A stretch of DNA of 50,781 bases from Rhizaria sp. SCN 62-66 (lineage: Eukaryota): the NCBI GenBank assembly GCA_001724265.1, contig MEDY01000213.1, forward strand, positions 1 to 50,781, read 5' to 3'. Under the pieces are notes generated by a model. That model had not been told where the DNA came from. It saw only the letters and a list, made by a program, of their open reading frames with translations, and did no database searches. A program made the translations under genes and the position numbers. Of the stretch, positions 2,447-47,700 are shown in pieces (within the stretch, counting starts at the first letter, position 1; each line of letters starts with the position of its first letter).

Positions 2447-5400
2447 ATGGAAGCGACTCCGCGTCGCCAGACGCTGGCAGCCCGCGTCCAATCCCTTGAG
2501 AGCTTTATTGCGCAGCTTTCCGCCGCGCTCGAGACGCAGATTGACGTCAACAAGGCACACCTGGCCGATCAGGACGCGCTGGCTGCTCGCGAGGCTGATC
2601 TGGCCTCCCGCGAGGTACACCTCGCTAACGCGCACGCCGCGCTCCTCGACGCCGAGACCGCATTTGCCGCCCGCTCCGACGCCGACTCCGGCGCGTGCGT
2701 GGAGTTAGGCGCGGGCGCAAGTGCCTCCGAAACCGCGCTTGAGACGGCCCTGCGCGGGCGCAAGTGCGGCTTCGCGCTCTATCTCTACCCCGGCCAGCCC
2801 GTGCGGCTGCCTTGGACCGTGCTGGCGGCCTTCGCGGCGCTGGCCGTCGCCTTCGTGCTCGTCACAACGTCGCCTTCGGAGGAGAACGCGGCGTCCGCGC
2901 GCGCCGCCGCCGAGGCCGCCGCGCGTGCAATGGCCGACGCGCAGTCGGCGCGGTCGGTGTTCGTGGCCGCGCTGCTGCAGCTGCTCGCGCTCTTCACGTC
3001 CATGGCCGTCGACTCCGAGGTCGAGGTCCCGCTGCTGGGCCGCGTCGAGTGCCTGCAGCAGGGCCGCCAGTCGCTCGGCATGCTCGTCGCCGGGCTCGCC
3101 GTCGGCGTCATCGCCTCCGCGGTGCACATCCTCGCGCCCATGCAGCGCCTCACGGCCAGCTACCGCGCCGCCACGGCCCCGCCACGCGTGCGCGCCGCCG
3201 ACGGCTCGCTCGTCGCCGCGCCGCCGTTGTCGTCGCTCTCGTTGAGCGTCCCCGCCAAGGTCGGGCTGCGCGCCTACACCGCCGCCGCGGACGCGCCTTC
3301 GCCCGTGGCGCGCCGCTACGAGGCCTTCTCGCCGCGCTCCTTCTCCGCCGCCTCCGTGCCCGGCGCCGCCACGCTCGCGGGCTTTGCCTCGCCGTTTGCG
3401 CCCGCAGCCGCCTCCCCCCCCGCGCAGACCGAGGCCCCCGCGGCTCTCGCGACCCCCGCGCGCCCCGCCGCCGGTCTCCCCGCGGGATCTCGCGCCGCGA
3501 GCGCCGTCAAGCTGACGCCCGCGGCAGCCCAGTGGGCGCGCGCACAAGCCTCCGCGCAGGCCTCGGCCCTCAATACGCCCGCGCGCGCGACGCCCGGGTC
3601 GGCGCGCGCCTCCGCGGCCGCAGTCAACGCTGCCGTGGCCGCCGCCAACGCCGCCGCCTCCGCGGCCGCCGCCAGCGCCGCGGCCAGCCCCGCCCGCGCG
3701 CGGTCCCCCGCCGCGGCGACGCCGACGCCGCGCGGCGCCAAGGTGACGACGGACGCGGCGGACCTGCGGTCGGCGCTCAAGAGCACGATGTACTCTGATT
3801 ACTTCGCCGGCAGCGACGACGACGCCATCGTCTTCTCCGGACTCGCCTCCCCCGTCCCCAACGCTAGCAACGGGAGCCGCGCTCCACTGTCGCCGCCCCA
3901 GGGCGCGCTGACTTCTGCGGTGGCGGCTTCTGCGGCCGCGGCGGCCGCGGCTGCTGCAGCCAACGACGACGTGCCGTTTGCCTCCGTGATCGACGCCAGC
4001 TTCGGCGGCGCGGACGCTGGCGCGGAGGAGGAGGAGTACTACTTCGACGAGGACGAGGACGGCGACCGCGACCAGGGCGACTTTGCCGCCGACGACGAGA
4101 TCGCGGCCGCGGGCGACCTGGACCTGCCTGCGCTGGTCGCGTCCTCTGTCAGCCCGCCCCACCCCTGCAGCGCCAGCGCCAGCGCGGGCAAGAGTAACAG
4201 CAATAGCAATATCACCATCCCCGCGCCTGCGGCTGCGCCCGCGCCCGTGCGATCCCCGCAGCCGCAGCCCCAGCCCCGGTCGCCGGCGCGGTCTCCGGCC
4301 CAGACTCGGTCTCCGGCCCAGGCTCAGGTCCGCCCCCCAGCGTAGGCGGCGTCGCCGCGCCCCACGGCGATGATGGAGGCCGCGGCGGCGCTGTCGGCGG
4401 CGGGTGCTGACGTGGCTTACGCGCGTGGCGCCTTCGAGCTCGAGTACGAAGACGAGCCCGTCGGCTCCAACAACGCCAGCGCCAGCGCTACGGCCGCTCC
4501 CAGCGCGAGCATCAAGGCTGGTCGCTCTACCGCTGCCGCTGCCGCTGCTGCTGCTGCTGGCGGCGTTTCGCCTGCGATGATGTCGCCCGCGTCGCCGGCC
4601 GTGGTGCACCACTCGTACGCCGCCGACAACGACGACGACGGCGACGACTACGACGAGCAGGAAGAAGAGGAGGAGGACGGTCGCCGCTACGCCGTCGGCG
4701 CGGGCTCGCTGGCGTCGCAGCTCGACGCCGCGGCCGTGACCTCGGCCGTGGCGTCGCTGGGCGCCGCGGTCCCGCTGGGCGATAGCGAGCACCTGGTCCT
4801 GGTGACCGACCCGCGCCCCGGCGCCGCGCCTGGCGCGACAGTGCTCGTGCGCGCGTCCGTGAGCAAGACGGAGGAGTTCGTGCCGCCGGCACCCGCGGCG
4901 GCGAGCATCTCCGCGAGCCGGCCGGTGTCGGCGTGCGGCGCCCTGTGCGCGCGCGCGGACGCTCTGGCCGAGGCGCACGACTACGAGGCCGTGTGGGCGC
5001 TGCTCACGACGCCCGAGGCGCGCGCCGCCGCCGCGGGGGCCGCCACGGGCGCCGAGACGGCCGAGGTGCTGTGGCGGGCCGCGCGCGGCGCGTACCACAC
5101 GAGCAAGGCGCTCAACAAGGCGGGCGACGCGGCCGGGCTGCGCGCGCGCGTCGAGGCTGGCCACGCGCTGGCGCTCGAGGCCGTGGCGGCTGACGACGAC
5201 TCGGTGCTGGCGCACAAGTGGGCCGCCGTGCTGGGCAGCGAGGTTGGCGGTCTGGGCGGGCAGCAGGGCAAGATCGACCAGGCGTTCAAGTTCCAGCAGC
5301 ACGTGCAGCGCGCGCTCGCGCTGGCGCCCGCCGACGCTGATCTGCACCATATGATGGGCCGCTTCTGCGTCGAGATCGCCGGTGTGGGGTGGACGATGCG

Positions 5401-5653
5401 CAAGGTCGCCGAAATTGCCTTTGGCGGACTGCCCAAGGCCACCGTCGAGGACGGGCTCGAACACTTCCGCCTCGCGCGCCAGGGCGAGCCCGCGTGGCCG
5501 CTGAACCTCGTGTGGATGGGGCGCGCGCTGCGCAAGCTCGGCCGCACCGCCGAGGCCGAGGAGCTCTTTGCCGAGGCCCTGGCGCTGCCCGCAGTGCGGC
5601 TGGAGGACGAGGAGGCGCATGCCATGGCCCGCAAAGAGCTTGAGTCGATGTGA
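2447..5653 (+). CDS. RMDN/FAM82-family (regulator of microtubule dynamics) TPR protein with N-terminal coiled coil and TM segments; 1068 aa if the in-frame TAG at 4343-4345 is sense
   Basis: ORFs 2447-4345 and 4370-5653 are in the same frame and separated only by TAG plus 8 sense codons. The C-terminal domain has RMD motifs EVLWRAAR, HKWAAV, FQQHVQRALALAPAD, MGRFCVEIAGVGWTMRKVAEIAFGGLPKATVEDGLEHF. The domain call is firm; the fusion is inferred. Confidence 0.75.
4343..4345 (+). other. In-frame TAG no. 1 (candidate sense codon)
   Basis: CCC CCA GCG TAG GCG GCG TCG CCG CGC CCC ACG GCG ATG; GC-rich coding-type sequence on both sides with no AT-rich spacer. Confidence 0.75.
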
Positions 5654-6076
5654 ATGCACTTTCCGATGCGACTGTTCTACCAACAATAACGAAAATTTGA
5701 CATATTTAGCCTAGGGCCAGTGATTTACAGAAACCCCAATGAAAAAAATAGATTAGGATTCATTGTTTATTTCAATTTTTGTGGTTTGGAAAAAAACTAA
5801 ACGTATATTTGAGTTAATACGACTCACCATCGGGATATCAAATGCCAATCACACGACAGAGCAATTATTAATACGTACCCCCGACGTACGTACATGTAAG
5901 CGCTAATACGTACGTATACGTAGCATACAACACAGTATATTAATATATAGAACACGGCAAGTAGCCACAGCTATCGCAACTAGTACATTTAAGAGAGGTT
6001 TCATTCTGTTAGGGCGCACTGGCACGCCGAAAAAAATTAATCATTTTTTTGGTGTACACATTTGAGAATAAGTGGA

Positions 6077-8680
6077 TCATTGAGGCGCGAAGCCAGCGTG
6101 GCAAACAGCCACCCGAGCCAAACGGCTGCCATTGCTGCAACTCTCAGACTGGCACCGTGTCTCAAAGCGTTGTAACACAACGGTGTCGAACGGACTGGTC
6201 TCGCCGTCTTGTTGCGCAGGCGGCTGCGTTGTAGCCACGCACGACATTACGCGACCAACGGGTACGGCACCGCGTAACACGCTCACCGGACATGGCTTGA
6301 AAATAATAAGCCACGGAGTGTCATATGTCTCGGTCGGCAGAATGGCGCGGGGATACATCATGACTGTGCCGACAGGGTATGTTGCGGACTCGGCCGCGCC
6401 AGCGTCTGCTGTCTCTGCGAATTCGCCGTAGACAATTTCGCTCCCAGGAAGCGACAATGGCGCAGGCGCACATGAGACATCCAGATTCGCAAACCTTGAA
6501 TTGTAAAATGTGACAAACGGCTGCGAAGACGCCGCAGTCTGACCCTGCGGCACGTAGCATGTGTGAAGCGAGTTACCGATTCCATTACCCGCCGCAGCGC
6601 GGAAGTGCGCCGCGTTGCAGGGGAATCTCTCGTCATTCAGCCGAATTACCATACTGTACCTGTCCTGAATCAGCGACATGGAGTTGTAGAGATGCAGAGT
6701 CATTATAACATCCGACTTCACGTGCTGAGATGTCAGCAATTCCCCGGAGTAGACGAGGATGCGCTCACGCGCCATAGCCTGCAGCAGAGCCAGTGCAGCC
6801 GGGGACGGCGGCGAAATGTTGGTTTGGTGTTCAGGGACAGAAGCTGGCTGCTGAATCTCAGCAGGCTTCTTGCGCGACAATCGCGGGGGAAAGCCGCAGT
6901 TTTCCAGACTACACGCGATGTGCGCGTCAAACGCTTTTTGCCAGGAACTGCGTTGCTGCAAAAACTCACGCATCTCTGCAAAAGAGTTCGTGCGCACATC
7001 TTCTGTGACAACTGTGTCGGGTGTGATCACAGCCATACTTACAAGCAGTGATTGCAATTGCAAAAGCTCATGCCGCGCGTTGCCACCGTCATAATCTTGC
7101 ACGCAGACATGATACTGCAATATCTCGAGCGCCTGCGGCCCGCGACTTGCCATAAACATGGCTACAGCGGAGTTGAGCGGCGCAACCTTGTCGTCGGATG
7201 CAGCAGGATCAAGAAAGATGACGCTTGCGTTCATGGCCTTGCGCAACACACACAGAAGCAGTGCTAGGTCATCGGCGCTCATACACACAGTGACAGGCTT
7301 CATTTCTGGATCATTACTAGACAACACAACTTTCTTCAGAAGTGTGCAACAAAGCTTCGATACGCCACTGGCAAAAAGCTGCTGCCCAGCTGTGCGCGTC
7401 ATGTCAGATTCAGGACCGAAAATGCTGTCGCACACTCGCACAATATTGCTTGACAATACGACATCCTCGCTAAAGTTGTCATTGATAGTGTCCAAAATGT
7501 GCACAAAACCACTCCCCCCCGAGAGGCGTTGAGCAAATGCAGGAAAATGGTCTGACAAAAAGGCCAACTCTTCCAGAAGCAAATTGATGATCTCCTTATC
7601 CCTCCAATTGTTCGTGTCGATTTGCTCGAGAAGGCAATCGAGACGACGGTCGTTAAAAGCACGGGCAAACGTGGCGTCGTCAAATAGGCGAAGAAACTTC
7701 AACAACAGTTGCAATGCTTCCACGTTCGAGCTATCCAGCAGCGGCTCGAGATCTTTACTGACAACAAAGCCCATAAGGTCGTTGCGGCGTTGAGCGTCGT
7801 CCGTGCCACTCTCGCACTCAAACATACTGTGCAAGGCAGAGTAGATGCACAGAACGGGCGAGACCGAGTGACCAAGAAATACGTAGCGCCGGAGAATGTT
7901 GCGCAACAGCGGAATGAAGGCAGACACAGAGGCGTATGAAAGCCGTGAGCTTGATGTGAAGATGAGAAGCGTGCTGCCAAGAGCATGATGAAAAGATTGA
8001 TCGTCAAACAGCGCATCATGCTAGAATTTTCGCTCATGCCGTGCCCTCTTACGCATGCAGGCCAGCAAGTTCGCCAGCGCAGTGTGTTTGGAAGAAATGG
8101 TGATGATGGCCTTGCGAGCAACAGTATTCACAGGCCCAAGAACAGAAGTCATCAAGTCACTATGATGAGGGAAACGAGGAAGAATAGCAGTAAGGTTCTC
8201 AACAATGCCACACTTATCAAGTAGCCTACAGCCGTCGGCAGAAGTGGCTATTGAGTCAAAGAGCATGATGATGGCTTCGAGTCGAGGCGCAGCGGCGTCT
8301 GCATACGCACCATCATCTGACTCTACATGTGTGTCTAAGTCTTCGTCTACGTCCACTTCCGCGTCCGCGTCCGTGTCTGTATCTTCATCTTCATCTTCAT
8401 CTTCGTCTTCATTGGCGCCGACGTCGGAGTCGGTCTCTGCGTCTGTAACCTCACCTGTGACGTCCTCGTCTTTTGCGTCGCCGTCGCCGGTAAGCACGAG
8501 CGATTGCAGAAGCAGACCAACGACGCCACTCTCACCAAGGATGTCAAGATCGGAGTGCATATAAAACGCGTCCCGGAGATTACTCACGGCGGAACGATCT
8601 GGCGCCAGAGCTATCGCACAGCTCACCGCAGCATGCAAGCGATGAATCTGCTCTTGCTTCTCCTTCGATGACTTGCTCAT
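6077..8680 (-). CDS. Helical-repeat (ARM-like) protein with a C-terminal degenerate cyclophilin-like domain; 867 aa if the in-frame TAG at 8021-8023 is sense
   Basis: ORFs 8021-8680 and 6077-7927 are in the same frame, joined by TAG plus 31 sense codons (HDALFDDQSFHHALGSTLLIFTSSSRLSYAS). The C-terminus has cyclophilin-like blocks in the expected order. Ends TGA. Confidence 0.65.
8021..8023 (-). other. In-frame TAG no. 2 (candidate sense codon)
   Basis: Minus strand reads CGA AAA TTC TAG CAT GAT GCG CTG TTT; the frame stays open to 6077. Confidence 0.75.
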
Positions 8681-9752
8681 TGCGGACTGATAGCGAAGTT
8701 AGCTCGACAGACGTCGAAACTGAACAGTGCTCACAAAACTCGTCTACTTCTGGTCAACCGTTGTTCTGTGGGGCTTCGGTGGCGTGGTGTCCGAAGTATG
8801 TGGGATGGGACAGGAGGAATATAAGATTTGCGTGAGAGTTGGAGTGTGTGAAAGGCAAAAGTGTGAAGCTTTGTTTGCAACGTATGCATGTTGCCGATAA
8901 ATATTATTATAAAAATAGCATAAAACACTCAATTTATGCAGGATACGAAACGGAAAGTGCGTGCGACAAAGTACTTATGACAGTATATACGATTTCGAAT
9001 CGGACAGCAATGGGTGCGTCGTTGCGGAGGGGCTCGAACCAAATGGTCTGGTCAGTCGGCAGCTCAACGGCTACCACACCACATATCAATTTTGGTTAGA
9101 TTCCAGCGGCAGAAACGGACTTCAAAAGATTGGTTGTAGGACGCCATTTGATTCAGCGCGATAGAACCCCTCCACGTTGTCTATATTATAATTCTGTGTA
9201 TTCTTGTCGAATTCTCAAAGGTTATACTAGTCCACTACGTAATACTAGTACCTATCGAGAAGATGGATGGTTACTTGGAGGCTTATAGCGTTGCACAGCA
9301 CATCGCACTTTGCTGCTGCAAGTTGCGCTATCGTTGTACAATATTGTACATGTAATTATAAATTGCACACGTGGAACACAAGTTGAATGAACACAGCCTG
9401 TCTGGCGTGCACGGCAAGAATGACCTTGCGCGCCACAGCATACACATGCTTGACAAGTCGGGCCACCAGAACTCGGTCATATTGAGAGACGAGAAGCCAA
9501 CAAGTGACTTTCTCAATGAGGCCGCATTCAGCAAGCGCGCCCCGTCACAGCCAGCAGACTGGCCGACAATCTTTTCAAGCACCGAGATCGCTGCGTACAG
9601 TCGTTGCACGTATGTGCGTGACGACACCACACTCGCGGAGCATGTCTTCGTTTGATCAAACACAAGGCGCACAAACAAGCACACTCAGAGAAAACATATC
9701 TATCACTAGGGTCATTACCCCACACAAAGCAAGATGTAGCCACATTATTGCT

Positions 9753-20402: not shown

Positions 20403-23400
20403 ATGCGTCCCGGCCGCAACGGCTCTAATAACTCGGCTACGGGGCCGAGCCCCGCGAGTCCGATGGCACTTTCGTACACGCCTGACAGCACGCTCGCACG
20501 TCACCCCTCGGCATCAGGTTTCTTGCCTGATTTCGGCACCCGTTCTGGTGTCGCCAGTCCCGGCCTCCCCCGCGCAGGCTCCGGCAGTCCCGCGCTGTTC
20601 ACCAAGAGCTTTACCTCTGCTGGCGGTTCCGAAGACGGCGCTACTGCGACGGCCCCAATCACGATCGCGATCAACTCGCCTCGCTCAGGTCTCAGCAACG
20701 AGCTCGGCCGCCTCGGCCTCAACACTCGCTTTGGCGACTCCCCAGTCTCGCCCTACGCCACCGGCTCTTCCTCAAACCTGAACACGCTGAACCTCAAAAT
20801 GGCGCGTTCCGTGACCCACCAGGCCCCCAGCGAGCTTCTGTTTCGCACGCAAAAGGTGCAGCGCTCCTCCGTCGCCGGCACCGGCACTGGCGCCGGTCGC
20901 ACCATCCCTGTCTCCGAGGAGCGGTGCTGGGAGTACTGGCGCAAGCAGCTGCGATCCCCCGCTGTTTTCACGCTGCTGACCGACTTCCCGCGCCCCGTGC
21001 CGGCCCCTGCGCCTGCGACAAGCACCCCGTCCGGTGTGCCGGCCTGGTAGCCCGACGCGGCCGCGTGTGCTGCTGCCCAGACGGTGCGTCTCGAGCTGCC
21101 CTCGCGGGTGGTGACGCAGATGCGCGCCGCCGCGTTCCAGCACCACGCGACGCTCTACGAGGCCTTTTTGGCCGTGTTCAAGGTGCTGCTGTTCCGCTAC
21201 TCGCGCGAGACGGACGTCACTGTGTACACTGACACGGGCATTAACGTCGTGCCTCTGCGCGTCGCCGTCACCGGCGAGCTCTCGTTCAAGCAGTTGCTGC
21301 GCCTGACCAAGATCGCCGTTGAGCAGGGCTTCCACTACGATCTTCTGGGCGCTGCCGCGCTGGCTGTGGATCTACAGACGACTTCTTTCAGTACCGTTGG
21401 CTTCCAGCTGCAGTACGAGGACGAACGCGCCGACCACGACGCTGCACTTTTCATCCGTTCACATGAGCTCGGTCTTGAGCTCGACCTTCATGACGAGGGC
21501 TTTGCGGTTGTTTCGCTGCATTATGCTCCCTCGCTGTTCGTGGCCGAGACGGCGCGGCAACTGCTTGACCACTTCGGCGAGCTGTGCGTGAACCTCGCCG
21601 CGCCCGATTTCGTCAACTCGACCATCGCAGTCGTGCCGCTGACGTCCTCGGAGGAGTCTGCGGCGCTGCTGCGACAGCGCTGGCCCGAGCGCGTGGGCGG
21701 CCCGCTGGTCGACCACTCGTCACAGGCTGGCCACGAGGAGGAGTACGCGTGGACGACTGATGAGCACATGTCGGACATGTTCGAGCGCCAAGCCGCGCGT
21801 TCCCCTGACGCGCCGTGCATCGACGACGAGGGCCGCGTGTACAGCTACCGCGAGGTCAACGAGCGTGCCAACGCGCTGGCGCGGACGCTTCTTGACAACC
21901 CTGCGCTGGGCATTGTGCCGGGCACGGACCAGCTCATCGCCACGCTGCTTCCCCGTTGCGCGGACGTGTACATCTGCCAACTGGCTATCATGAAGGCCGG
22001 CTGCGGTTACATCTGTATCGACTGCACCTACCCGCAGGACCGTGTTGACTACATCCTGTCTGATTCGCGCTCGCGCGTCATGCTTACCGTTGCCTCGCTC
22101 GCGGGCAAGCAGACAGTGTGTCCCGAGCTCCGTCTCGACGACGAGGACGTCAAGGCCAAGTTCGCCGCCGCTCTTTCTGCTTCGACCAGCAAGGGCAAGA
22201 AGCCCTCTGGTAAGAAGGACGCCGACGGCGATGACTCTGGCGATGAGTACTTCAAGCGTCTGCGCGTGCGTTCTGCGCCTGCGTCGAAGCCGCGCGGCAC
22301 TGACCTCGCGTACGTCATCTATACCAGTGGTACGACTGGCAAGCCCAAGGGTGTGATGATTGAGCACCGCTGCGGTGTCAACTTCGTTAAAGGTGAGGCC
22401 GCATGTTTCCGCATCAAGCCCACTGACCGTGTTTTGCAGGGCTTTTCGACCTCGTTTGACGCCTCAGTCGAGGAGATCTGGCTCCCGCTCTACGCGGGTG
22501 CGTGTCTCGTCGTCGGCACGCTCGCGACGATGCAGTCTGGCCCCTCGTTGCCGCAGGTGCTGCACAAGCTGGGCGTTACCGTGCTGTCCACGGTTCCCAC
22601 GCTGCTCACGATGATCTCGCCGCCCGCGCCTGGTGCGCCCGCCGACGACGTCGACAACCTCCCGCTCGTGCACTTGCTTATCCTCGGCGGTGAGGCGTGC
22701 CCGCCCGAGCTCGTTGCCCGCTGGGCGCCCGGTCGTCGCCTGATCAACTCATACGGCCCCACTGAGGCCACCGTCGTGTCGACGTTCGAGCAGTCGTATG
22801 TGGGCAAGCGCGTCACCATCGGTCGCCCGCTGCCTAACTACTACTGCACGGTTCTTGACGCTAACATGCAGCCATGCCCTGTGGGTATGCCTGGTGAGCT
22901 GCTTATTGGTGGCGTGTCGCTTGCGCGTGGCTACATGAACCTTGAGGCGCAGACCAAGGAGAAGTTCATCACCACGCCGTTCCCCGACCTCGTCGAGACC
23001 GTGCCCGTGCTGTACAAGACAGGCGACCTGTGCCGCTACCTGCGCAACGGCGACATCGAGTTCCTCGGTCGCATTGATTCGCAGGTCAAGCTGCGTGGTT
23101 TCCGCGTCGAGCTGAGCGAGATTGAATCCGTCATCACGCAGTTGCCGTACGTGCGCTCCGCCGTCGTCGCTGTCAAGGGTCAGAACCTCATCGCGTTCGT
23201 TGTGCCCAAGGATCCTATGTCAAGTCCCGGTGGCGACGATGACGTCAAGCACGGCTCTGTCTTTGTCGAGGACGCCAATTCGCTGCTTCTGGACGAGTCT
23301 GAGCCAATTGCGCGTTGCTTCGATCACGCCGCGGCTCGCGAGTACATGAAGAAGATGCTTCCGCACTATATGATGCCCGGTCAGACTATCCTCGTCAAGG

Positions 23401-26400
23401 ACATCCCTTCCCTGCCTTCCGGCAAGGCGGACCGTAAGACCCTGATGCAGATTCAGGTCAAGTCCGGCACGGGCGCTGGTGCGGGCCACGGCTCCCTGGC
23501 CGAGACACGCAAGAAGCGCGCTGGCGCGGGCGCGGGTGGCAAGCGCGCGCGTGGCGCTGCGCGTGAGCGCGGACTGGCCACGGCCGAGGCGCTGGAGAGC
23601 ACGCGTTTCTTCCGCCACGCGCCGCCCGAGAAGCAGGCCGCGATCGCCGCAGCCCTGGCGCGTATCGAGGCCGAGTTCGGCGCGAACCCGGTCAAGGCGC
23701 GCTCTGCTGCCGAGGCGGGAGCGCTGGGCGACTCGGATGCGAGCGACGACAGCGGCAGCGACAGTGACGACGACGCCGGCAGCGGGCTGACGAAGCTGGA
23801 GAAGGAGGTTGTGGGTGTGTGGGAGGAGGTGCTCGGCCAGAGCCCCGTAGGCGTGACGGACGACTTTTTCTCTGATCTCGGCGGCCACTCAGTTGTCGCC
23901 GCGCTTGTGGTGTCGGCTATGCGCAAGAAGGGCCTCGTGGTGTCGATGCGCGAGCTGTACGGAAACCCCACGGTCCGCGGCTTCGTCGCCGCGATGCTCG
24001 CCGATCCTGCCAACGCCGCTGCTGCCGCTGCTGCGCTGCCACCCGCCGCGGCAGCTGCAGCTGCGGCTGCTGCGGCTGAGGCTGGTGCCGAGGAAGGCGC
24101 TGACGATGGCAAGCTGGCGGGCTACCGCGGGCCGCTAATGGGGTGGAAGCAGGAATATGCCGTGTTCATCTTTCAGACTCTGGGGCTGCTCGGCGCCGTG
24201 GCATGGCTGGCGATGGTGCGCATCGGTATCTACTTCTTGATCCGCCTTCTGTACGACAAGCACTTGCTCGATATATCGCTCGGCAACGCCGCCGTGCTGT
24301 GTGCTGTGACGCCGCCGGCGATGACTGCCATTACGCTCCTCTGCCTGCTGCTGCTGATTCCGTTCAAGTGGCTGCTGCTGGGCCGCATCAAGCCCGGTCG
24401 CTATCCCATGTACGGCTGGTTCCACATGCGCTGGTGGCTCGTGTCCAAGATCGCTGCCAACTTCCCGTTCCCGTTCTTCCGCAACACGTGGGTGCTGCGC
24501 TGGTTCCTGCGCCTCATGGGTGCCCGTGTCAGCGGCTCCGCGTACCTCGGCTCGTTCCTGCTGTCAGACTATGACCTCATCACGATCCACGATGACGCTG
24601 CCATCAACACACAGGCGCGTCTGTCGCCTCACCGCTTTGAGGACGGCTTCCTCATCCTCGAGCCCATCGTAATTGGCCGCGGCGCAGTTATCGGTCCCCG
24701 TTCCGCGGTGTCCGGTGGTGTCACTGTCGCTCCCTACGCCGAGCTCGACGCGCTCTCGCTGCTGCCACCTGGCGCGCATGTCGAGCCTGGGACTCTGTAC
24801 CGTGGCAGCCCCGCCAAGCCTGCCGGCCCCGCGCCGGCCACGCCTGTGCCTGCGTTCCAGCCAACCGCGACTGCCGGCGTCATCAACAGCGCCTCCGCCG
24901 CCGAGGCCGCCGAGCACGGCGGCTTTATGCCCTTGATCGAGGAGGGCGACGAGAGTGGCGGCCGCGCGGACCTTGCGCCGACTAAACGCACCTGCTGCTC
25001 TGGTTTTATCGTCTCGCTGTCGATGTTTGTGTCCATGTCACTGTACGGATTCTTCACTCTCTACGCGTACCTACCCGCTGCTGTTGCTTTCTACCTGTTC
25101 CTGGGCCCGCCCAAGTGGTCCCTGGGCCAGATCCTGCAGTGGTCCCCTATCGCCGTCGTCGCGTCCGTGCTCATTTACCTCATCGTCATCATCGTGCTGC
25201 GCTGGGTCGTCTGCTGGCAGTTCACTCCCGGTGCGTACACCACGGACTCGTGGGTCTACTTTCGCAAGTGGTATCTCGATATGCTCACCGACGTCGCTGT
25301 CCAGTCGATGCAGACGCTGTACGCGACTGTGTACACGCCGTTATTCCTGCGTGCACTGGGCGTACGCATGGGCAAGCGCGTAGAGTGCTCCACTCTCTTT
25401 GACTTTACGCCGAATTTGACTGTGCTTCAGGACGAGTGCTTCATCGCCGACCACGTCGCGATGGGCTCATCCGTCGTGCGCCGTGGCGCGTTCGAGCTTA
25501 AGGAGACCGTCGTTGGCGCCCGTACCTTCGTCGGCAACAACGCCGTTCTCGTCGCGGGCTCGCGCCTTGCTGGCAACAGCCTCATCGGCGTCAGCTCCGT
25601 CCCACCTGTCGGCGAGATGGCTGAGGGCACGTCGTGGGTCGGCTCCCCGTCGTTCCTGCTGCCTTCGCGCAAGAAGGTCGCCGGCGTTTCCGAGAGTGAA
25701 ACGTACAACCCGCCCGTGTACAAGGTGCTGCACCGCGCGACCTGGGAGTTCTTCAAGGTGCTGTTTCCCTTTTTCTTGGGTGCGACCAACTACGGCATTC
25801 TCGTCTCGCTCACCGTCTGGGCTCTGGACAAGTATGGCGTCATGATGTCGTCGTTCGTTTTCTTCCCCGTCTTTGCGCTCGCCCTCACCGTCGGCTTCGC
25901 AATATTCGTCATCGCGCTCAAGTGGCTGCTCATCGGCAAGTTCAAGACGCGCAACTACCCGCTGTGGTCCGTTGAAGTTTGGCGCGCCGAGTTCATGCAG
26001 GGCATCGAGGAGAACTTTATCGCCCCCATCTTCCTTAGCGCCGCGCAGGGCTCCTGGTGGGCCGTGCTTTGGTTCCGTCTCATGGGCGCCAACATCGGCG
26101 AGCGCGTGTACTTGGACACGATCTACCTCACGGAGCCCGACCTGATCACGATCGACGACGACTCGGTGATTGAGAGCGCCACCACTGTGCAGACACACCT
26201 GTTCGAGGACCGTGTGATGAAGCAGGAGCCGCTGTACATTGGCCGCGGCTGCTCGGTGGGTGCCAACTCCGTCGTGCTCTACTCCTCCAAGGTCGAGGAC
26301 GGCGCTGTGCTTGAACAGGCCTCGCTCGTCATGAAGGGCGAGACGCTGATGAAGGGCCTGCGCTATGAGGGCATTCCCGCCGTCACCGCTGTGCACCGCC

Positions 26401-26471
26401 GCGCGCCCAACAAGGCCGCACAGTCAGCCGCCTATGTCCCGCCTATCGTCGCGGCGTCGGGCCTTAACTAA
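20403..26471 (+). CDS. Membrane-bound single-module NRPS of the epsilon-poly-L-lysine synthetase (Pls) type: remnant C domain, A, T, then three TM/beta-helix terminal repeats; 2022 aa if the TAG at 21048-21050 is sense
   Basis: A-domain cores YVIYTSGTTGKPKG, FDAS, NSYGPTE, GELLIGGVSLARGY, YKTGDL, GRIDSQVKLRGFRVELSEIE and PSGKADRK. T domain DDFFSDLGGHS (Ser at 23889-23891). Three repeats LRLMGARVSG, LRALGVRMGK and FRLMGANIGE are each preceded by hydrophobic TM stretches. Ends TAA. Confidence 0.92.
21048..21050 (+). other. In-frame TAG no. 3 (candidate sense codon) inside the condensation-domain remnant
   Basis: GTG CCG GCC TGG TAG CCC GAC GCG GCC. The upstream motif YWRKQL...LLTDFPRP and the downstream motif ATLYEAFLAVFKVLLFRYSRETDV are consecutive parts of one C domain. 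Confidence 0.85.
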
Positions 26472-28579: not shown

Positions 28580-31500
28580 TCAATCTTTCTTCGCAGCGTT
28601 CTTCTCACCCTTCTCCCGCCCGGCGCTGCTGCCACTGTTATTGCCTTCAGCGCGCGTCCTAACTCCAGCCTCCTTGTCCGCAGCATCAGCCTGCGTCTGC
28701 GTCTGCATCTGCGACAACGTCTCGGTCTGCGCCAATGTCTGACCCTGGGCGTGCACATGCCCGAGCGCAGCAGCGGCCGCCGCGGCGACCTCGGCCTCAT
28801 CAACAGGCTTCCTGGTCACGTGGGCCCTGGCCAGCGCCTCGGCCTGCGCCTTGGCCTCGGCCAGGACCTCCTCCTCAGCCGCCTGCCGCGCCACGGCCTC
28901 CGCGGCGCGCGCCTCGGCCAGCACCCGCGCCGCGGCGCGCGCCTTGGCGGCGAGCACCTGCGCGCGCGTCATGCCTGCGGCCTCGGCCTCGCGCTGCGCG
29001 TGCGCCTTGGCCTCCGCGCGCGCCTGCGCGAACGCGATCGCGGCCTCCACTGCGGGTTGCGCGCGGGCGAGCGCGGCGGCGGCGTCGGCCTTGGCCTGCT
29101 CGTTAACGCGCGCGGCCTCGTCCGGGTGCTCGTGACCCTCGATGTCATCCGGGTCGCCCACAGCGTTGGCCGTCGTGGACTGGTACTGCCACATCGCCGC
29201 GTAGACGCCGTTGAGCGCCAGCAGCGACTCGTGCGTGCCGCGCTCCGCGATGTGGCCGTGCGACAGCACGATGATGTCGTCGCAGTGCGTGATGGCCGAG
29301 AGCCGATGCGCGATGTACACGGCAGTGCGGCCCTTGGTGAAAGTGCGAATGTTGTTGATGATCTCGTGCTCCGTCTGCATGTCCAGCGCTGACGTCGCCT
29401 CGTCGCAAAATACGATGCGTGGGTCCTTGAGGATCAGGCGCGCAATCGCGATGCGCTGCTTCTCGCCGCCGGAAAGCTTGAGCCCGCGCTCGCCGACGAG
29501 CGTGGCGAAGCCCTCGGGCATGCGCTCGATCGTGGCCGTGAGATTGGCCAGCTCGGCGGCTTGTCGCACCTCGGCTTCAGTCGCCGACTGCCGTCCGTAG
29601 CGGATGTTGTTCATGATGGTGTCGTTGAACAGACACGTGTCCTGCGGGACTACGCCGATGGCGTTCTTGACGCTGCGGATCTTGGCCTGGCGCACGTCGA
29701 CGCCCGAGAGGAAGACGCCGCCGCCGTCGACGTCGAACTCGCGTGCCGCGAGGCGGAAGATGGTGCTCTTGCCGCTGCCGCTGGGGCCCACGATCGCGGC
29801 CTGCGTGCCCGGCGCGATGGTGAAGGACACGTCGTGAAGAATGGGGCGCTCCTTGGAGTAGGCAAATGACACGTTCTTAAACGTCAGAGAGATGCCGTCC
29901 TCGGAGCTGCTGTCCAGACTGTGTAATGATGATAATAAAACAACGTTAAGAACAAGATTCAGAAGATGTGAGTGATCTGACGAAGCAAAAAACTCTCTCA
30001 AAACGACGAAGTTGAAAAGAATATATGAATCAGACAACGTACGTGATGGCGTTTGGAGGCTGCGCAAGAGAGCTCTCAATGCCGCGCAGAGCCATCATAA
30101 CGTGCATGTCCGTGAGGGCCTGTTTGAGCTCGCGATACACGGAGCCGACGAAGTTGAGCGGGATCGAGAGCTGGAACAGTAGAGCGTTAACCATGACCAG
30201 GTCACCGACAGTCTACAGAAAATGAACAGATTAACAAGAAGAGACAACAATTAATTCAAGTGAGTAAAGTAAGTCAAATAAAAAGAAGAGTGAAACAACA
30301 ACAGAAACACACCAGCAACGAACATCGATCCGGAAATTTCTTTTCAACAAGGTAATCAGGCGTACCATGGTTCCCGCAGCAACTCCGTGAGCCGCCAAAA
30401 GCATGACGGCGGTCATACCGGCGCTGAAGATAACGTTCTGTCCCCAGTTGAGTAGCGCAAGCGACTCGTTGGTGGCGACCGAGGCCCTATTCTGCACGGA
30501 GATGATATCATTGTAGCGCTTCGTCTCGTACTCGATGTTAGAGAAGGCCTGCACGGTGGACGAGTTGATGAGCGCGTCGAACGCGCGCGCGCTGGCCTCG
30601 TTGTCCGCCTTGTTCATCTCACGGCGGAACTTGCCGCGCCACTTGGTGATGCCGACGGTGAAGCCGATGTAAGCCGTGAGCGTGGCGGCCGCGATGGCCG
30701 CGTAGGCAACGCCGCAGTTGGCCGTGAGAATGCCCAGCACGAGCGAGATTTCCAGCGCGGTGGGCACGATGTTGAACGCCAGCGAGTTGAGCACGAAGCC
30801 GATGGAGCGCTGGCCGCGGTCAATGGCGCGGGTGAGCGCGCCGGTGTTGCGCTCGAGGTGGAACTTGGCGTCCATGGTGAGCAGGTGGCGGAAGAGGTCC
30901 ACAGCGATGGACTGAATGCCGTCCTGCGTGACCTTGGCGAAGAGCGCTGACCGCAGCTCGTTGGTGAAGGACGCGAGCGCGCGCGCGATACCGTAGCCGA
31001 GAAGGACGGAGACAGGCACGGCAACCATCAGCGACGGCTGCCCCGCGGCGTTGACGGCGGACATGGCCGCCTCGACCGTAGACGCAACCGACTCGACCGT
31101 GGACGCGACAGAGTCGGCCACAGCCGCAGTGGTCTCGGGACACGCCCCCACGGCCGTCGCGCACTGGTCGGCAACCGCGCACGCGGCCTGCTTGGCGGCC
31201 GCCGCGTCGGTCGCGGTGGGCACATGTTGCGCGAGCGCCGAGGCGTCGAGGCTCGGCACGGCGACGTTGTGCTTGGTGGCCAGCTCGACCACGCGCTGGT
31301 GCGCCTCGCGGGCCTCGAGCCGCGCAGAGGCGAGCTGCTGCTGCGCGAGCTCGAGCTTGGCGGCCGCCTCCGTGGCTTGCTCCTGCAGCGCCGACTTGAG
31401 CGAGGCAGTAGCTTTGACCCGCGCCTGCACGCGGCCCAGCTCGTCGACGGCCTGCTTGAAAAGCAGCGGGACCCAAACGTTCATCACCTTGGCCGCCATG

Positions 31501-39693: not shown

Positions 39694-40793
39694 ATGGCGA
39701 CGTCGAGCAACAACGCGCACTCGCGCATGTCGCGCGAGGACTACAATAAGGCCAAGGAGCTCGAGGAAATGCGCAAGGCCGGCTCTGCGATGCCCGCCAC
39801 GGACGAGGAAGGCAAGCTCATCAACCCGCACATCCCGCACTATATTTCCAACGTGCCGTGGTACTACGGCGAGACGGGCACCACCCTGCGCCACCAAACC
39901 ACCAAGAATTTCGAGTCCGCCACCGGCGCCGCCGCAGCCGCCCCCGCGGGCGGACTCACCACCACGCGCGCCTACGTCCGCTCCGCGGCTGCGGTCGGCG
40001 CACGCTTCCGACCCGGATCGTGCGCGAACTGCGGCGCGATTGACCACGCCGCGAAGCAATGCCTTGAGCGGCCCCGCGCCAAAACGGCGCGCCTGCTCGA
40101 CACGACACTGGTCGAGGACCGCCGCGTGGTGGGCGCGAAGCTGGACTGGGAGGGGCAGCGCGACTCGTGGCAGAACGTCGACGCCGCGCGCGTGCAGCAG
40201 GAAGTCGTTGCGCGCCACGCCAAGGCCGACGCCGAGCGCGCGCGCGTCAAGGAGGAGCAGCTCCGTGCGAAGCTCCAGCGCAAGGAGCAGCAGGCCGCCT
40301 CCGACAGCGCCCACGGCGACGGCGACGGCGACGGCGACACGGCCGCAGCCGAGGGCGCAGCTGAGGGCCAGGGCCAGGGCCAGGTCAAGCGCCGGCGCGT
40401 GGCTGGTGGCGCCACCAACAACGCTAACTCTGACAGCGACAGCGACGCGGGCGGCGGCTCCGATTCCGGCTCCGACGCTGAGGACGACGACCTGGCCGAC
40501 GCGGGCCGCGTGCAGCAGAAGCGCGACGCGCGCTCGCGCGGCACGGTGCGCAACCTGCGCATTCGCGAGGACACGGCCAAGTACCTCCGCAACCTTGACC
40601 TGTCGAGCGCCTTCTACGACCCGAAGACGCGCTCCATGCGCGAGAACCCCTACGCGGCGGACGACCCGCGCGCGCTGCTCTACGCCGGCGACAACGCGCT
40701 GCGCGCGGGTGGCGAGGCGGCCGCCGTGACAGAGTACCAGCGCTTCGCCCTGCAGCGCGCCGCGGCCGCCGAGGCCGCATCCGCATCGGGCGC

Positions 40794-40829
<36 letters not shown>

Positions 40830-41529
40830 GATCGGGGACATGATCACACCATCGAGCGTGGAGAGCGAGTACAAGGCGCACCTGCGCGCTAAGGAGGAGC
40901 AGCGCCGCCGCCACGAGGAGCTCATCGCGCAAAAGTACGGCACCGCGGGTGCGGGCGCGGGCGAAAGCGCAGGCGCGACCGCCGCCACCGCCGCCGCCGC
41001 CGCCGCGACCGCGGAGGCTGAGGCCGAGGCAGTGGGCCGGCTGGTGGCCGCGGGCGGCGTCGACGGCGGGATCATCGTCCGCACGGCGCGCAACAAGCGG
41101 CTGCTGTACGATCACGACGACGCGCCCGCAGACGCAGACGTCGCCGCGCAGTCGGCCGGGGCCGCTAGCGCGCTGGCTGCCGAGACCGAGGCCCGCAGTG
41201 CCGCCGCCGCAGCCGCCGCGGCGGGCGCGGGGAAGCGGCACGTGCACGCGGGCGCGCGCGCGACCCGGTACCTGGCGCCGGGCGACGCGAACCCGACGCT
41301 GGTGCCCGTGACCAAGTACATCGAGGACGAGTGGCTGGGCAACCACACGTCCGTGTTCGGGTCCTGGTACGACCGCGCCGCGGGCCGCTGGGGCTACGCG
41401 TGCTGCCGGCAGACGGCGCGCGCCGCGTACTGCGTGCCCATCGTCAAGCAGCAGCAGAGCAAGGCCGAGGCCGTGACAGCGACTGCTGGCGCGGCTGTGT
41501 TCAAGACGGAGCCTGGAACGCACTCGTGA
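39694..41529 (+). CDS. SLU7: Pre-mRNA splicing factor SLU7 (611 aa)
   Basis: SREDY...ELEEMRKAG...INPHIPHYISNVPWY, zinc knuckle CANCGAIDHAAKQCLERPR, VRNLRIREDTAKYLRNLD...YDPKTRSMRENP, NHTSVFGSWY...WGYACC. Ends TGA. Confidence 0.96.
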
Positions 41530-41793
41530 GCTTGGAGTTATGATAGGAAACGCGGCTGTATGAAGCAAACGTTTTGTTGGGCCACTCGAGCACAATTAAT
41601 ATAACCACCAATACAATAGTCCATTTAAGCTTGTGGTTGAAGTCAAGAGAATAGCGTTGATGCACATATTTATTTTCGAAAGTCAAACGTGGGTAAAGAA
41701 CTCTATTGATCATGGGATTGTACAAGTTATGTAGATTTGCGTTGTGTGATTAGATTAATGTTACAAGACATGAAAAGTGTTGGTTAAAGCAAC

Positions 41794-44700
41794 TTAGTCA
41801 GCGTCGTTCATGGCCATGTGAGAGCCCGTCACAGCCATATTACCGTCGAGGTTGGCAGCATTCGCATCATCACCACTCGCCGCCGGCGCTGCATCCGTAC
41901 GCTCACTCACATCGACACCAGGAAGATCTCCATCGTTGTCATCATCTTCACCGTCAATGCTCTCAGCTTGGGCATTGGATTGCATTTGTGTCTCAGCTGC
42001 AGCAGCCGTCGCTGCCGCAGCAAGCGCTGCCGCAGAAGCCGCTGCTGCCGCGGCGGCTGCCGCGGCAGCAGCGACAGCTTGAGCCTTCTTATTTGACTGG
42101 TACGCGGCAGCCGAAGCGACGGCACGGCGGCGCTCTTGCTCGCGCATTGCGTTTTCAGCCGCGATTTGCTTGCGGATGCGGTCCTTTGCAGCCTCCTCCT
42201 CCACCTGCGCAATCGCGGCCACCTTATCGGCCCTGCGCGCGGCCGCGGCGGCCTCGTCCAGTCGCATCGCCGAGGCGTAGGCACCAAAGCCGAGTGATTC
42301 GAGCGCGCGGAACACGTCATTGCGCTCCAGTACGCCCGTAGCTGCGAACGCAGGCGCATCCTTGGCCTCTGCAAGGAGCAGGGTGAGAAACTCTTGCGCC
42401 GCCAGAGTCACCGCCGCCGCGGCCTGCGCGCTCACAACCTCAACATGCGCGGGGCCGCGCGGCGAGACGTCACTGACAACGACGTCGTCATCGTCGACAG
42501 GCACGACACCATTGTCAGCGTCGTCCATCGCACGGTCGCGGTTGATAGCCGTAGCAGTCTTTCGGCTGCCTTGATGATGACTGATCTTGTCCGCGTCCCG
42601 TGCGTGCGTGTGGGCGTCGTCGGCGGCCGTGTTGAGCACGGTCGCCACGCGCGCCATAGCCTCGCGCACCACGAGCGCGTCACGCAGCGTGAACACGCTC
42701 TCAGCGCGCTCGGGCGCGAACAGGGCCAGACCCTCAGAGTCGGGCAGCGCCGCGCGCGCGGCAGCCACGGCGGCGGGCGCGGGCGCGGGCGAGGCGGCCA
42801 CGAGCTCAGCAATCTCAGCCGAGCCGCCAGCGACGTCGGTGAGCCGGCACAGCGCACGCATCAGGAGAGCGCGCATACGTGCGGGGCACAGTGGCAGCGG
42901 GTACTGGCGCGCGGCCGCAGTGTCGGCCTGCCAGAGCGCGAGCGGCGCGGTGTACACCGCGCCCGAGTACGGGTCCGCGGGCAGCAGGAGCGATGCGGGC
43001 GCGGGTGCGGCCACAGGGACGCCCGCTGCAGCACCAGCGCTCGATAGCTGATTCGCACTTGGTTCAGTGGTGGTTTTTGAGTTGGTAGTCGGGGCGCCAG
43101 TGGCGAGCTCGCGCACGGCACGCCAGTCAACTAAGTCGCGCGCCAGGACAGCGCCATTAAAGCGAGCGAGGACGTTACTGGGAGTCTCGCCACTGTCAAT
43201 CTTCGCGCGATGAGACTCCGCATCGGCGTCAGCGATGTCGGTCTCAAGAGCCGACTCGATAAGCAGGGACACCAAGCCCTCGGGAGTCGTCTCATCAGCC
43301 TCGCCCCGGTGGTCCTCCTGGTCTGCGCAGTCACCCTCTTTAGTAATGGCGAGGTGCTGCGCCACCGTGGCGATCGCAGCGGCCAAGAACTCTTCAGAGC
43401 ACGTGTACTTATGCCACCACCCCTTGGAACGTGGAGAACCCTCACCTTCGTCGTCGTTGTCGCTGACACTGCCACCTTCACCTGCTCCGGCCTCAGCGGC
43501 CTCCATAGCCCACAGCAGAGGGCGCAGCGGTGCAGGGACAAGACGAGAGTCGAGCGAACTCGCATCCCCGGCACGCGACAGCCACGCCCCGCGCAGCGCG
43601 CCGAGCTCAGCAATGGGCTTCTCTTTCTCGAACTCACGGTACGGGTGCGACAGATACCCCCACTGGTCGTGCACACTCATCAGCGTGCCTTCGGCGATGC
43701 GCGCCGCGCCGTGGCGCAGGTGCGCACCCACACTGCCGGTCGCGGCCGCCGCTGCCACAGTGGCAGGGGACATCGCCATGGTGCGCGCGGCGGCCAAGCG
43801 CTCCGACACGGCCACGGCGTCGGCCTCGGCCAGCGCGGCGGCCGTCGGCGGACCCATGGGCAGGAACGATCCGATGACGCCGCCCGTCAGCGGCTCGATG
43901 TCATCGTCCTCACCGGCCTCTTCCTCGACCACGGCGGACCAAAGTGCGGTCTCGCGCGCGGGCAAGTGCTGCGCAAAGAGTTCGCCCACGTCGGCTGCAG
44001 CGAGGGAACCCACGAGCGCGGTGACGGCGGCGTCACCCGCAGCGAAGCCGCCGACGATGGCGGTGTGTGCGCCATGCGCCTGCGACGTCGCGAGAGCGCG
44101 TGCGACGTGGGACGGAACGGCGGTCAGGGAGTCCGCGTTGCCCGCGGCCACAATGCCGCGCAGCACGGTCGTTTTGGCGCGCGCGGCGGCCAGACGGCGC
44201 CCGGAGCGCAGAGCCATAAGCGACACCAGCGCTGTGTTGGCAATCGCGAGCGGCAGCTGGACGCGCGAGAGCGTCACAGCGGTCGCCCCGGCCTCGTTGG
44301 CCAGAGCGCCCGCATTCGGCACCGCAGACGCTGCGGCCGCAGCGGCAGCGGCGGGCGAGCTCGGGTTCACAGCGACCGCGGGCGTGGAGACGGCGCGGCC
44401 AGGAGGCTTCGGAGCAGCAGAGACCGAGGCGTTTGCGGCGGCCGCGATGGCCTCAGTGACGGCAGGTGCCGGGGGCGCTTGAGTGAGCGCAGACGGGACG
44501 GGGAACGGCAGCGAAGGAAGCAGCGACGGCGGGCACCAAAGCACAAGGTTGTTGAGCTCCTGTTCCTGCGAGATTTCGACACCAGGCAGCCGTAGCGGCC
44601 CGCCCGCGGACACGGCGTAGTTGTTCACGGGCGCTCCAGAGCGCAGCGGCAGTCCAGCGGCGGAGAGAAAGTGGTAGGTGCCCGCGGTGACGCCGTCAGT

Positions 44701-47700
44701 GGCGGCCCCGACGCCGTGCTCGCGCGCTCTACACACGACGCCGTGGCTGCTTTCGAAGACCTCAGCAGCAGCCTTGGCTGCTGCAGAAGCAGCAGCCCTA
44801 AGCAACGCAGATCCCGCACCAGCTCCAGACGCAGCGCCGACGGATTCGTTGCTGGCCCTGTCCATGTTGGTCGCAAGCGTAATGACGCGCATGGCGGCGG
44901 CGGCAGCGGCGGCGGAGTCAGGCCCATCTCGGCGCGCGAAAGTCGGCAGCACGGCGGCAGTCAGCGTCGTCACCGTGGTCGCGGGGCCAATCACCACGCC
45001 TTCCGGCGTCAGGCCCGGCAGCTGCCAGAGCGCCTCAAGCGCAGTGATTGCGGCCGCGTTGAGCTGTGCCGAGCCAAAGACGGCGGGCGGGTACTGCGAG
45101 GGCAGCGGGACGCCCTCCTGCTCGCCTTGGCTGACGGCAGAAAGCGCCCACATGTCGTTCTGCCGCTGCGGGAGGCCAGTTACAGCAAGATCTGCCACCG
45201 CCGCAGAGAGGCGCGCCTATTCGTCAAGCTCATCAGTCTCCGCACCACCACTGCCATCACCAGCCCCCGCGCCAGCCCCATCGTCCACACCGGTTCCAAC
45301 GCCAGCACCATTGCCAGCAGCAGCAGCAGCAGCAGCAGAAGAAGAAGAAGGCGAAGCAGTTGCAGCCGCAACACCAAACGGGACAGTGCTATCATCAGAG
45401 TCGCCAGCCTTAGACGCGAGCGGGGCAGGGTCGACAGACGAGGCGGCGTCAGAGTTGGTCACCCCAGGCGTCTGAGCGGGACGCCTGCGCGGGGTGCTAC
45501 CCTTCGGTGGACGCTGACCTTGCGAGCGCGCATTCTTTTGCCCATGCTGCTGCAGCTGCTGTCCAGAAGAGCGACGCTCTTGCTCACGCATTGAAGCCTG
45601 TACTTCTGGAGCAAACGCGCGGAAGTTGTCTGCGTTGGCGAATAGCACAGAGTTGACTCCACGCCAATGGGCAGGATCGTGCGCTGTTGAGAGCATCACT
45701 GCGGCTGCTGTCTCGTGCGCTTGCATAGTGCCGGCATCCCCCACGGCCGCTGGCGAGCGCAGTAGCACCAAAGCCCCGCAAACCCCGCGCAGCCGCGTCA
45801 CACCGGAGCTGAGCATGTGCGAGTGATCAAAGGATGCGAGCGCTTTGGCGACGTGAGTCGTAGCATCGTTCACCAGAGCCAACGCCACAGGCGCATTTTT
45901 GTTCTCAGCAAGCGCATCGAGAACCCCGGGGCGCTGCGCAGAGGCAACCGTCACAGCGATGTTGATGCCACGCGCAAGCAGACTCACAGTTGTGTTTTCG
46001 TAGCAGTCGTACAACAGCGAGAACACTACGGCCTCAGCCCGAACTTGCGCCTGCAGACGCTCCGTACTCTCAGCCTGGGCCACATTTGCCGCATCGACCG
46101 CCGCAGTCCGCGCACTTTCAGCCATCAGCAACTGTCCAGCAGCGGATTGGGCCCTAGCAGCATCCCCACTCCCACTCGCAGCGGACACCTCCTCACGCGC
46201 ACGCGCCACATCGGCCACCGCGGCCTCTCGCGCGCGCGCTGCATGTTCTGCAGCCGCGACAGCGCGCGAGGCCGCAGCGCCCGCTGCAAGGGCGGCGTCG
46301 ATGGCGCGGAGCGCGTCAGTCGCGGTCACCAAGCCACCAGGCAGCGGGTGCGGCGAGTTGAGCCGCCAGCGCACCGGTTCAGCGAAGATCCCAGCGGCGT
46401 AGCTGGATGCCATCACGACGCCCGTGGTGCGCGCGGCCTCGGCGATGGTGGGATCACCCCACCACGCCACGGCGGGCGTGTCAAGCGCGAGCGTCAGCAC
46501 GCCGCCGAGCCGCATCGCGGTCGCGGCCATGAGCCACGGCGCAACGGTCGAGGCGTTCACCGGCAGCGCCGAGTTGGCCGCGAAAGCTTGCTGCAACACT
46601 GTCGGTGATGCTGTCAGCGTCGTCATCAGACTCGACAGCGCTCTTGCTGCGGAACGCGAGGCCGTGATGGCTGCAGCAACCGCACCTTCGGCAGTCTCGC
46701 GCGTGACCTGTGCCGCCTTCTGTGCCGCCTCGAAGCGGACCATGGCGGCAGCCACTGCCGGTGGCACCGCGGCGTTCATGCGGCGCAGTGCGCCGGCGGG
46801 ACCACGGGCACTTTCAGCTGCGTTCTTCGCCAGAGCGAGGGCCTCCGTCGCGGCCGCGAGCTCACGCTCGCACGAGGCGATGAAGCCAAGCGCCGTGTGA
46901 GCAGTTCCGGACGCGACCCGCGCGGCGGCCACCAGGCGCTCCAAGTCAGCGGGGCAAGCCAGGCCGTGGATGCGGGCGGTGTCGATGGCGGCCGCGAGCG
47001 AGATCAGCGGCAACGGCGCAGCAGGGAGCGCGCTGCCCGCCGCACTCGTGCCTGCGGCAACGGCCGCCGCAGTCTCAGGCGCCGCAGCAAGTTTCGACAA
47101 CAACAATGACGGCGCCTGCGTGCGCCACAGAGCAGCCAGGTGAAACAGATCTTTGCCGGATGCCACTGCGTCGACCGTGGTGATCGCCAACGCAGCGGCG
47201 TCGAGCTCGGGCCCGCCAGCACAGCGCGTCTGCATCGTGGTGCGCATGAGGCCCCAGTCACGCGCTAGCACGCCGTCGAGCGCGGCCTCCAGGGCAGCTT
47301 CCGCGTCGAAAAAGGCAATGCCCTCGCCCTCAGACGCGGGAACCGGCGCATAGGCTGCGGGCACAGACCACGGGCAGCGGTTGCCGAGCACAAACCCGTG
47401 TACACTGGCGGCAACGCTCGCCGCAGGCGAGTTAGCAGCAGCCAGCACGCCGAAGGGCGCGGGTAGCGGCCGCGGCGCCGCGGCGGCCGCGGCGGGCAGC
47501 GAAGCGGCAGCGAGCACCGGGGTCGAGCCCATGTTGGTGGCGGCGGTGGCAAGAGCGACGGCGGCCTCAACCGCAGCTGAGTCAGAGCGGTGCGCCGCCG
47601 CGGTGTCGAAACAAAGCCGCAGCCAGTGCGAGAGATGGAGGGCGAGCAGCACGCGCTTGAGCCAGATCGCGAACGTCGTGTGCGTGTACGGCACAGGGTG

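Follow-up and report, generated by a model that had tools for sequence, protein, structure and literature searches.

In-frame TAG codons in intact nuclear genes of a G+C-rich eukaryote point to UAG as a probable rare sense codon

We analyzed a 50,781-nucleotide stretch of nuclear DNA (the window; contig MEDY01000213.1, deposited as Rhizaria sp. SCN 62-66) in which four genes each contain a single in-frame TAG. At each of these sites, 4343..4345 (+), 8021..8023 (-), 21048..21050 (+) and 45217..45219 (-), one TAG joins two same-frame open reading frames (ORFs), confirming an observation made earlier from the letters of the DNA (the sequence-only reading). TAG 1 falls in a disordered Ala/Pro-rich linker of g2 (2447..5653, +), a gene of 1068 codons when read through the TAG, which ends in TGA, has a G+C content of 0.89 at third codon positions (GC3) and encodes a C-terminal RMD1-3/TPR-like domain (Pfam PF21033, E 1.3e-18, residues 873-1055). 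TAG 2 occupies a variable linker of g3 (6077..8680, -), which spans 867 codons through the TAG, matches no Pfam family and ends in TGA. TAG 3 lies within the condensation-domain match of a nonribosomal peptide synthetase (NRPS)-like gene (20403..26471, +) of 2022 codons that ends in TAA and contains partial Condensation, AMP-binding, PP-binding and hexapeptide/LbH domains identified by Pfam. TAG 4 follows an acidic run in g11 (41794..48231, -), an orphan gene of 2145 codons that ends in TAA; its two flanks are stop-free for 1004 and 1140 codons, and the TAG frame is the best frame on both sides. Immediately 3′ of the TAG, two sites have C and two have G. The first downstream ATG at sites 1, 3 and 4 is only 8-24 codons away, and the proper intergenic gaps of the window are low-G+C blocks that extend for hundreds of bases.

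Two side features concern the proteins themselves. The NRPS-like gene encodes, in order, the partial condensation domain, an adenylation domain and a carrier domain, followed by two membrane-embedded hexapeptide/LbH regions, an architecture that we take to resemble bacterial and fungal epsilon-poly-lysine synthetases. In g3 the C-terminal part is strongly conserved, with the motifs FPCNAAHF, PWFIVFKPC and LRGAVPVGRV, and Atlas structure matches, all of them below the bar for naming, point faintly to HEAT-like repeats and to a C-terminal fold like that of cyclophilin.

Coding sequence continues across all four TAGs. The 12 tabulated ORF models, which comprise 11,887 non-terminal codons, contain four in-frame TAG codons and no in-frame TAA or TGA, in agreement with the earlier claim that no gene here carries an internal TAA or TGA. 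Scoring of all six frames with a leave-one-gene-out codon model showed that the TAG frame is stop-free and ranks highest in eight of eight flanks, which range from 215 to 1806 codons in length, and GC3 remains high in unchanged phase across sites 1 and 3. As controls for intervening sequence we used the two canonical introns of an ABC transporter gene (28580-32315, -), intron 1 at 30213..30365 (-; 153 nucleotides, GTACGC...TGTAG, G+C 0.35) and intron 2 at 29919..30042 (-; 124 nucleotides, GTACGT...CACAG, G+C 0.34), both of the form GTACG...YAG and verified by excision, which leaves a single 1152-codon ORF. Within 75 bases of TAGs 1 to 4 the G+C content is 0.79, 0.49, 0.75 and 0.65, compared to 0.34-0.35 in these introns, so that no AT-rich spacer is present at any of the TAGs, as the sequence-only reading had held. 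We also considered hidden short introns at the TAGs, including a 32-nucleotide GTAAGA..CTAG candidate at site 2, and rejected them: removal of the 32-nucleotide candidate would shift the frame, and the verified introns are 124-153 nucleotides long and AT-rich.

The stops that end the genes of the window form a second line of evidence. About 15 gene models, 11 well supported and 4 tentative, terminate in seven TAA, eight TGA and no TAG codons, and the 11 well-supported models taken by themselves terminate in four TAA, seven TGA and no TAG. An earlier count of 16 genes, with eight TAA and eight TGA terminators, was therefore right about the absence of TAG and requires correction in its numbers, and the TAA at 30231 is intronic in the ABC transporter gene and no terminator. 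Zero TAG terminators among 15 has p ~0.01-0.04 if a TAG share of 20-25% is assumed, for a small sample drawn from this window.

The bare pattern of one stop between two same-frame ORFs, put forward earlier as telling, proved to be common by chance. A survey of all six frames for pairs of ORFs, each 70 codons or longer, that are parted in frame by one stop recovered 86 junctions in the window (32 TAG, 48 TGA and 6 TAA). We ranked these junctions by their weaker flank, using a model trained on only the eight TAG-free genes, and found the four sites described above at ranks 1, 2, 3 and 5; none of the 86 is a TGA or TAA junction with two clearly coding flanks. The four sites are thus exceptional solely in that both of their flanks score as coding. 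When the genes are read in the +1 and +2 frames, the stops are mainly TGA (403 TGA, 67 TAA and 45 TAG), so frames left open by chance would be expected to close mostly by TGA. The sequence-only reading had further argued that TAG is the only stop to interrupt genes, and this argument is much weaker than claimed. Approximately 70% of random single-base nonsense changes under the codon usage of the window yield TAG, so four TAGs out of four have p ~0.24 under a null of mutation or error, and the observation is not in itself evidence for a change of code.

Comparison with homologous proteins places TAGs 2 and 3 inside single conserved genes. The NRPS-like protein has three metagenomic, eukaryote-like homologues (P0002, 64% identity; P0003, 53%; P0004, 51%), all three of which show conservation before and after TAG 3 and align to the window without a gap, with W-E-PD, W-A-PD and W-E-PD opposite the W-TAG-PD of the window. 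The TAG column therefore sits between an invariant W and PD, and the block RCWEYWRKQLRSP.VF.LLTDFPR upstream of it is conserved in P0002, P0003 and P0004. The DNA of a relative (contig L002, 100% identical to a further contig, L003) carries the NRPS-like gene at 9737-15277, the sole window protein with a tblastn match in that contig, and reads TGG GAG CCC GAT at this site where the window reads TGG TAG CCC GAC. For g3, a word-index search returned the window's own protein only, and an exhaustive search returned 105 proteins (representative clusters) at E<=1e-3, two of which are the window's own pieces: P0125 (219 amino acids, residues 1-219), which ends at TAG 2, and P0121 (582 amino acids, residues 286-867), which starts at a later Met. 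From the 103 non-self matches we aligned 13, chosen since the match spans residue 220, and all 13 pass ungapped through the TAG 2 column, which lies between conserved blocks. The residue at this column is variable, with four P, four T, two L and one each of D, N and K. Because the homologues are continuous, gap-free and conserved on both sides, TAGs 2 and 3 are not introns, gene boundaries, untranslated leaders or chance-open frames, and these alignments indicate that each of the two TAGs takes the place of one residue in a single protein. Public gene calls for the same DNA are split or truncated at the TAG, as P0125 and P0121 for g3 and as P0001 (1783 amino acids), which begins at the first Met past TAG 3, for the NRPS-like gene.

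The TAGs at sites 1 to 3 are real DNA and not assembly errors. We compared contigs from other sequencing runs over window positions 3000-22999 (20 kb), a stretch that includes these three sites and has TAG 4 outside it. A 1579-base metagenome contig (L001) is 100% identical to 20069-21647, TAG 3 included, and contigs from run X3, which belongs to another study, cover TAG 1 and TAG 3 with no differences from the window (3651-4519 and 20154-21647). A contig from run X4, which belongs to a third study and represents a strain with nearby single-nucleotide polymorphisms, covers 7315-8196, retains TAG 2 and differs only at 7850 and 7862; among the pieces listed, none from X3 lies over TAG 2 and none from X4 lies over TAG 1 or TAG 3. 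The possibility of sequencing error raised earlier is thus answered for three of the sites, which are unchanged in contigs of other studies, and an intronic position is ruled out by intron G+C and length together with the gap-free homologue alignments. We accordingly regard as very improbable that the four cases are artefacts or errors of gene modelling, whether these arose from errors of sequencing or assembly, from hidden introns or from two adjoining genes at each site. The frequency of single-stop ORF pairs in G+C-rich DNA and the absence of comparative evidence for sites 1 and 4 would favor such an account, but it is largely refuted at sites 2 and 3, where homologues are unbroken, and it is further opposed by identical sequence at sites 1 to 3 in other assemblies, by verified introns that are AT-rich and 124-153 nucleotides long, and by the short distance to the next ATG at sites 1, 3 and 4 compared to intergenic blocks of hundreds of bases.

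Differences between strains bear on whether the interrupted genes are functional. Among the 40 of 60 strain differences listed, 18 fall between genes and 22 within coding sequence; with a four-base cluster at 5248-5251 left out, 13 of the 18 listed coding differences are synonymous, and in the NRPS-like gene all six of those listed are synonymous (one upstream and five downstream of TAG 3). The genes therefore look functional, given that coding strain differences are mostly synonymous. This result speaks against the explanation that the TAGs are premature stops under the standard code, present as recent nonsense alleles or in pseudogenes, in which case translation of the parts past the TAG might start at internal ATGs, the arrangement assumed in the gene calls P0001 and P0121. 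Several observations would suit that explanation: random nonsense changes are mostly TAG (0.70), one G>T step separates site 3 from the GAG of the relative, the relative has no in-frame TAG, and zero TAG terminators among 11-15 genes is just mildly unlikely if the share of TAG is lower than assumed. It requires, however, that four of about 15 genes be truncated without any frameshift or upstream decay, with upstream frames open for 215-1004 codons, the conserved motif upstream of TAG 3 intact and the TAGs persisting in contigs from other studies and years, and we consider it rather unlikely.

Leaky or context-dependent termination would leave UAG formally a stop codon that near-cognate tRNAs read through at a rate sufficient for full-length protein from the four genes, with no dedicated reassignment. 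TAG usage is very low (four codons in about 12,000), the TAGs fall in variable or disordered stretches, and C, which favors readthrough when it directly follows a stop, is the next base at two of the four sites (G at the other two), all of which fit this explanation. We nonetheless judge it unlikely, as leaky termination by itself leaves the absence of TAG among about 15 terminators unaccounted for and the four TAGs have no downstream motif in common. Dependence on readthrough in four of about 15 genes also far exceeds any frequency known to us in eukaryotes with the standard code.

RNA evidence comes from polyA RNA run X7, which belongs to the same study as X4 and whose contigs cover 20482-20902 upstream and 22574-22885 downstream of TAG 3 and 4355-4713 just past TAG 1. 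Recoding at the RNA level, of the kind that filamentous ascomycetes perform by A-to-I editing at UAG, is a known mechanism with a preference for UAG (passages of PMC4817773 and PMC11156358) and would be compatible with the finding that no RNA contig among those listed spans a TAG. We find this explanation distinctly unlikely here. Such editing is known from fungi and the organism of the window need not be a fungus, the loss of TAG terminators (zero of about 15) is not predicted by it, the homologues at site 3 have E, A and E and not W, and local folds at the TAGs have no consistent hairpin-loop context. The share of genes affected in the window, four of about 15, is also far above any known to us in editing ascomycetes.

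Two further observations concern the ends and positions of these contigs. Contigs of X4 and X7 start at 4350-4355, at most about 10 bases past TAG 1, and a contig of cDNA run X6 starts at 21050, the last base of TAG 3; in graph assemblies, contig breaks of this sort may reflect strain variants. Another X7 contig, 19955-20295, lies in the low-G+C stretch upstream of the first ATG of the NRPS-like gene, where it could derive from an extended 5′ leader or from carry-over of DNA into the library; RNA depth is zero in several other intergenic bins.

Because real, conserved in-frame TAGs are present in four of about 15 intact genes and no gene ends in TAG, sense UAG is the simplest account of these data. 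We consider it probable, on a case made up of stops that exist in intact genes, comparative evidence and missing TAG terminators, that UAG encodes an amino acid as a rare sense codon while UAA and UGA end genes, although four codons are no proof. The central proposal of the sequence-only reading thus stands insofar as the interrupted genes are genuine single genes, the TAGs are non-intronic and TAG terminators are missing; that UAG is translated we infer from the real in-frame TAGs in otherwise intact genes and the lack of TAG terminators. On this proposal the organism would be a G+C-rich eukaryote of bioreactor, wastewater and activated-sludge communities in whose nuclear genes UAG no longer acts as a terminator and would be decoded as an amino acid at low frequency, approximately four times in 12,000-13,000 codons. 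The ribosome would insert the amino acid by means of a UAG-reading tRNA, an eRF1 protein blind to UAG, or both; no eRF1 gene is present in the window. Leu, or alternatively Gln, had been proposed as the residue and neither was borne out, as the site 3 homologues have Glu, Ala and Glu, the relative has GAG and the site 2 column is variable. The E/A/E pattern at this one site faintly suggests Glu, the single residue with any support.

A number of points weigh against a sense UAG. In-frame TAG codons number only four, none of them in the conserved genes RRS1, Slu7, eIF2B-epsilon or the ABC transporter gene; UAG is extremely rare in the genes of the window, and the identity of the interrupting stop as TAG cannot by itself separate sense UAG from nonsense alleles. 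Sites 1 and 4 are without comparative support: a homologue search around TAG 4 in g11 gave zero matches, and no search was made for g2. The relative L002 has GAG at site 3, and its three large ORFs (about 3,900 codons) are free of in-frame TAG; its ORF ends include no TAG among six, which are too few to tell whether it shares the trait. No tRNA genes were found in the window, L001 or L002, and the RNA contigs listed include none that would show the message across a TAG. With respect to the evidence from other assemblies, L001 and the X3 contig share an end base and are perhaps not independent; the window itself may derive from run X1.

Comparison with known systems shows both precedent and differences. 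UAG-only reassignments are described in passages of PMC5304391 for Iotanema spirale (UAG=Gln) and for the rhizarian exLh (UAG=Leu), and both, like the window, are non-ciliate eukaryotes with UAG alone in frame and UAA and UGA alone as terminators. In exLh, however, UAG is abundant, with 384 in-frame codons across 71 transcripts, often where Leu is conserved according to the same passages, whereas the roughly 15 genes of the window contain four, all of them outside conserved positions, and the one alignable site has Glu or Ala in the homologues. The window is G+C-rich, and a word search of PMC5304391 returned no statement on G+C content. Among ciliates, phyllopharyngeans use UAG for Leu or Gln with UAA as the preferred stop (passages of PMC11687900), and in Oligohymenophorea sp. 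PL0344 UAA and UAG code for different residues (passages of PMC10553269). These ciliate cases share with the window a UAG uncoupled from UAA and a discovery by mining of metagenome-derived assemblies, but in them, as far as those passages describe, suppressor tRNA genes were identified and UAG use is widespread, whereas scans of the window found no tRNA. In Blastocrithidia nonstop, as partial accounts of it describe, all three stops are reassigned, with UAR read as Glu and UAA in a dual role; a stop read as Glu would fit site 3, while TAA and TGA are never in frame in the window. The edited genes of ascomycetes likewise have in-frame TAGs in genes that encode full-length proteins, but passages of PMC4817773 and PMC11156358 describe a process that is RNA-level and stage-specific with TAG terminators still in use, in contrast to the zero of about 15 TAG terminators and the larger share of genes in the window.

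Reassignment of UAG with UAA and UGA kept as stops is thus known from few eukaryote lineages, in which UAG is abundant according to passages of PMC5304391 and PMC11687900. If confirmed, the window would represent a further UAG-only reassignment, possibly at an early stage, that differs by the rarity of UAG and by a G+C-rich, intron-bearing genome that does not look like that of a ciliate. A more specific scenario, which we put forward tentatively and hold with less than even confidence, is that of an early-stage UAG reassignment in an uncultured, G+C-rich, non-ciliate eukaryote of engineered-water communities, in which UAG has gone from terminators and is returning, at about 0.03% of codons, where the protein is unconstrained and perhaps with the meaning Glu, while a relative at about 55-64% protein identity keeps GAG at the same site. 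Were this true, a UAG missing from terminators and yet very sparingly used as a sense codon would represent an intermediate between codes. Codon-capture and ambiguous-intermediate models predict such intermediates, which are seldom observed. The genome is G+C-rich, and base composition would not favor the loss of TAG stops. If UAG is indeed a sense codon, annotation of such contigs under the standard or bacterial code would be wrong for about one quarter of the genes in the window. A literature search, with supplements outside its scope, found no paper that describes this organism or reports a changed UAG in a non-ciliate eukaryote from wastewater.

The remaining gene content identifies the window as eukaryotic nuclear DNA. 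Eukaryotic nuclear genes assigned by Pfam include RRS1 (707-1822, -), eIF2B-epsilon (32988-35981, -) and Slu7 (39694-41529, +), in addition to the ABC transporter gene with its two canonical AT-rich introns. The overall G+C content is 62.5% (31,760/50,781 bases), with low-G+C blocks that alternate with G+C-rich blocks and a coding G+C of 60-80%; with introns of 124-153 nucleotides and this coding composition, the window presumably does not come from a ciliate. Scans of the whole window for tRNA and Rfam families gave zero matches, and searches of genome-contig and viral-contig collections recovered no further contigs of the organism or its relatives. The DNA of the window recurs in bioreactor, wastewater and activated-sludge metagenome runs from six studies. 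Between 36100 and 39200 the gene models are uncertain, with an ORF at 37353-38201 (-), overlapping ORFs on the + strand and an ORF at 38757-39137 (+), which may be exons of intron-bearing genes.

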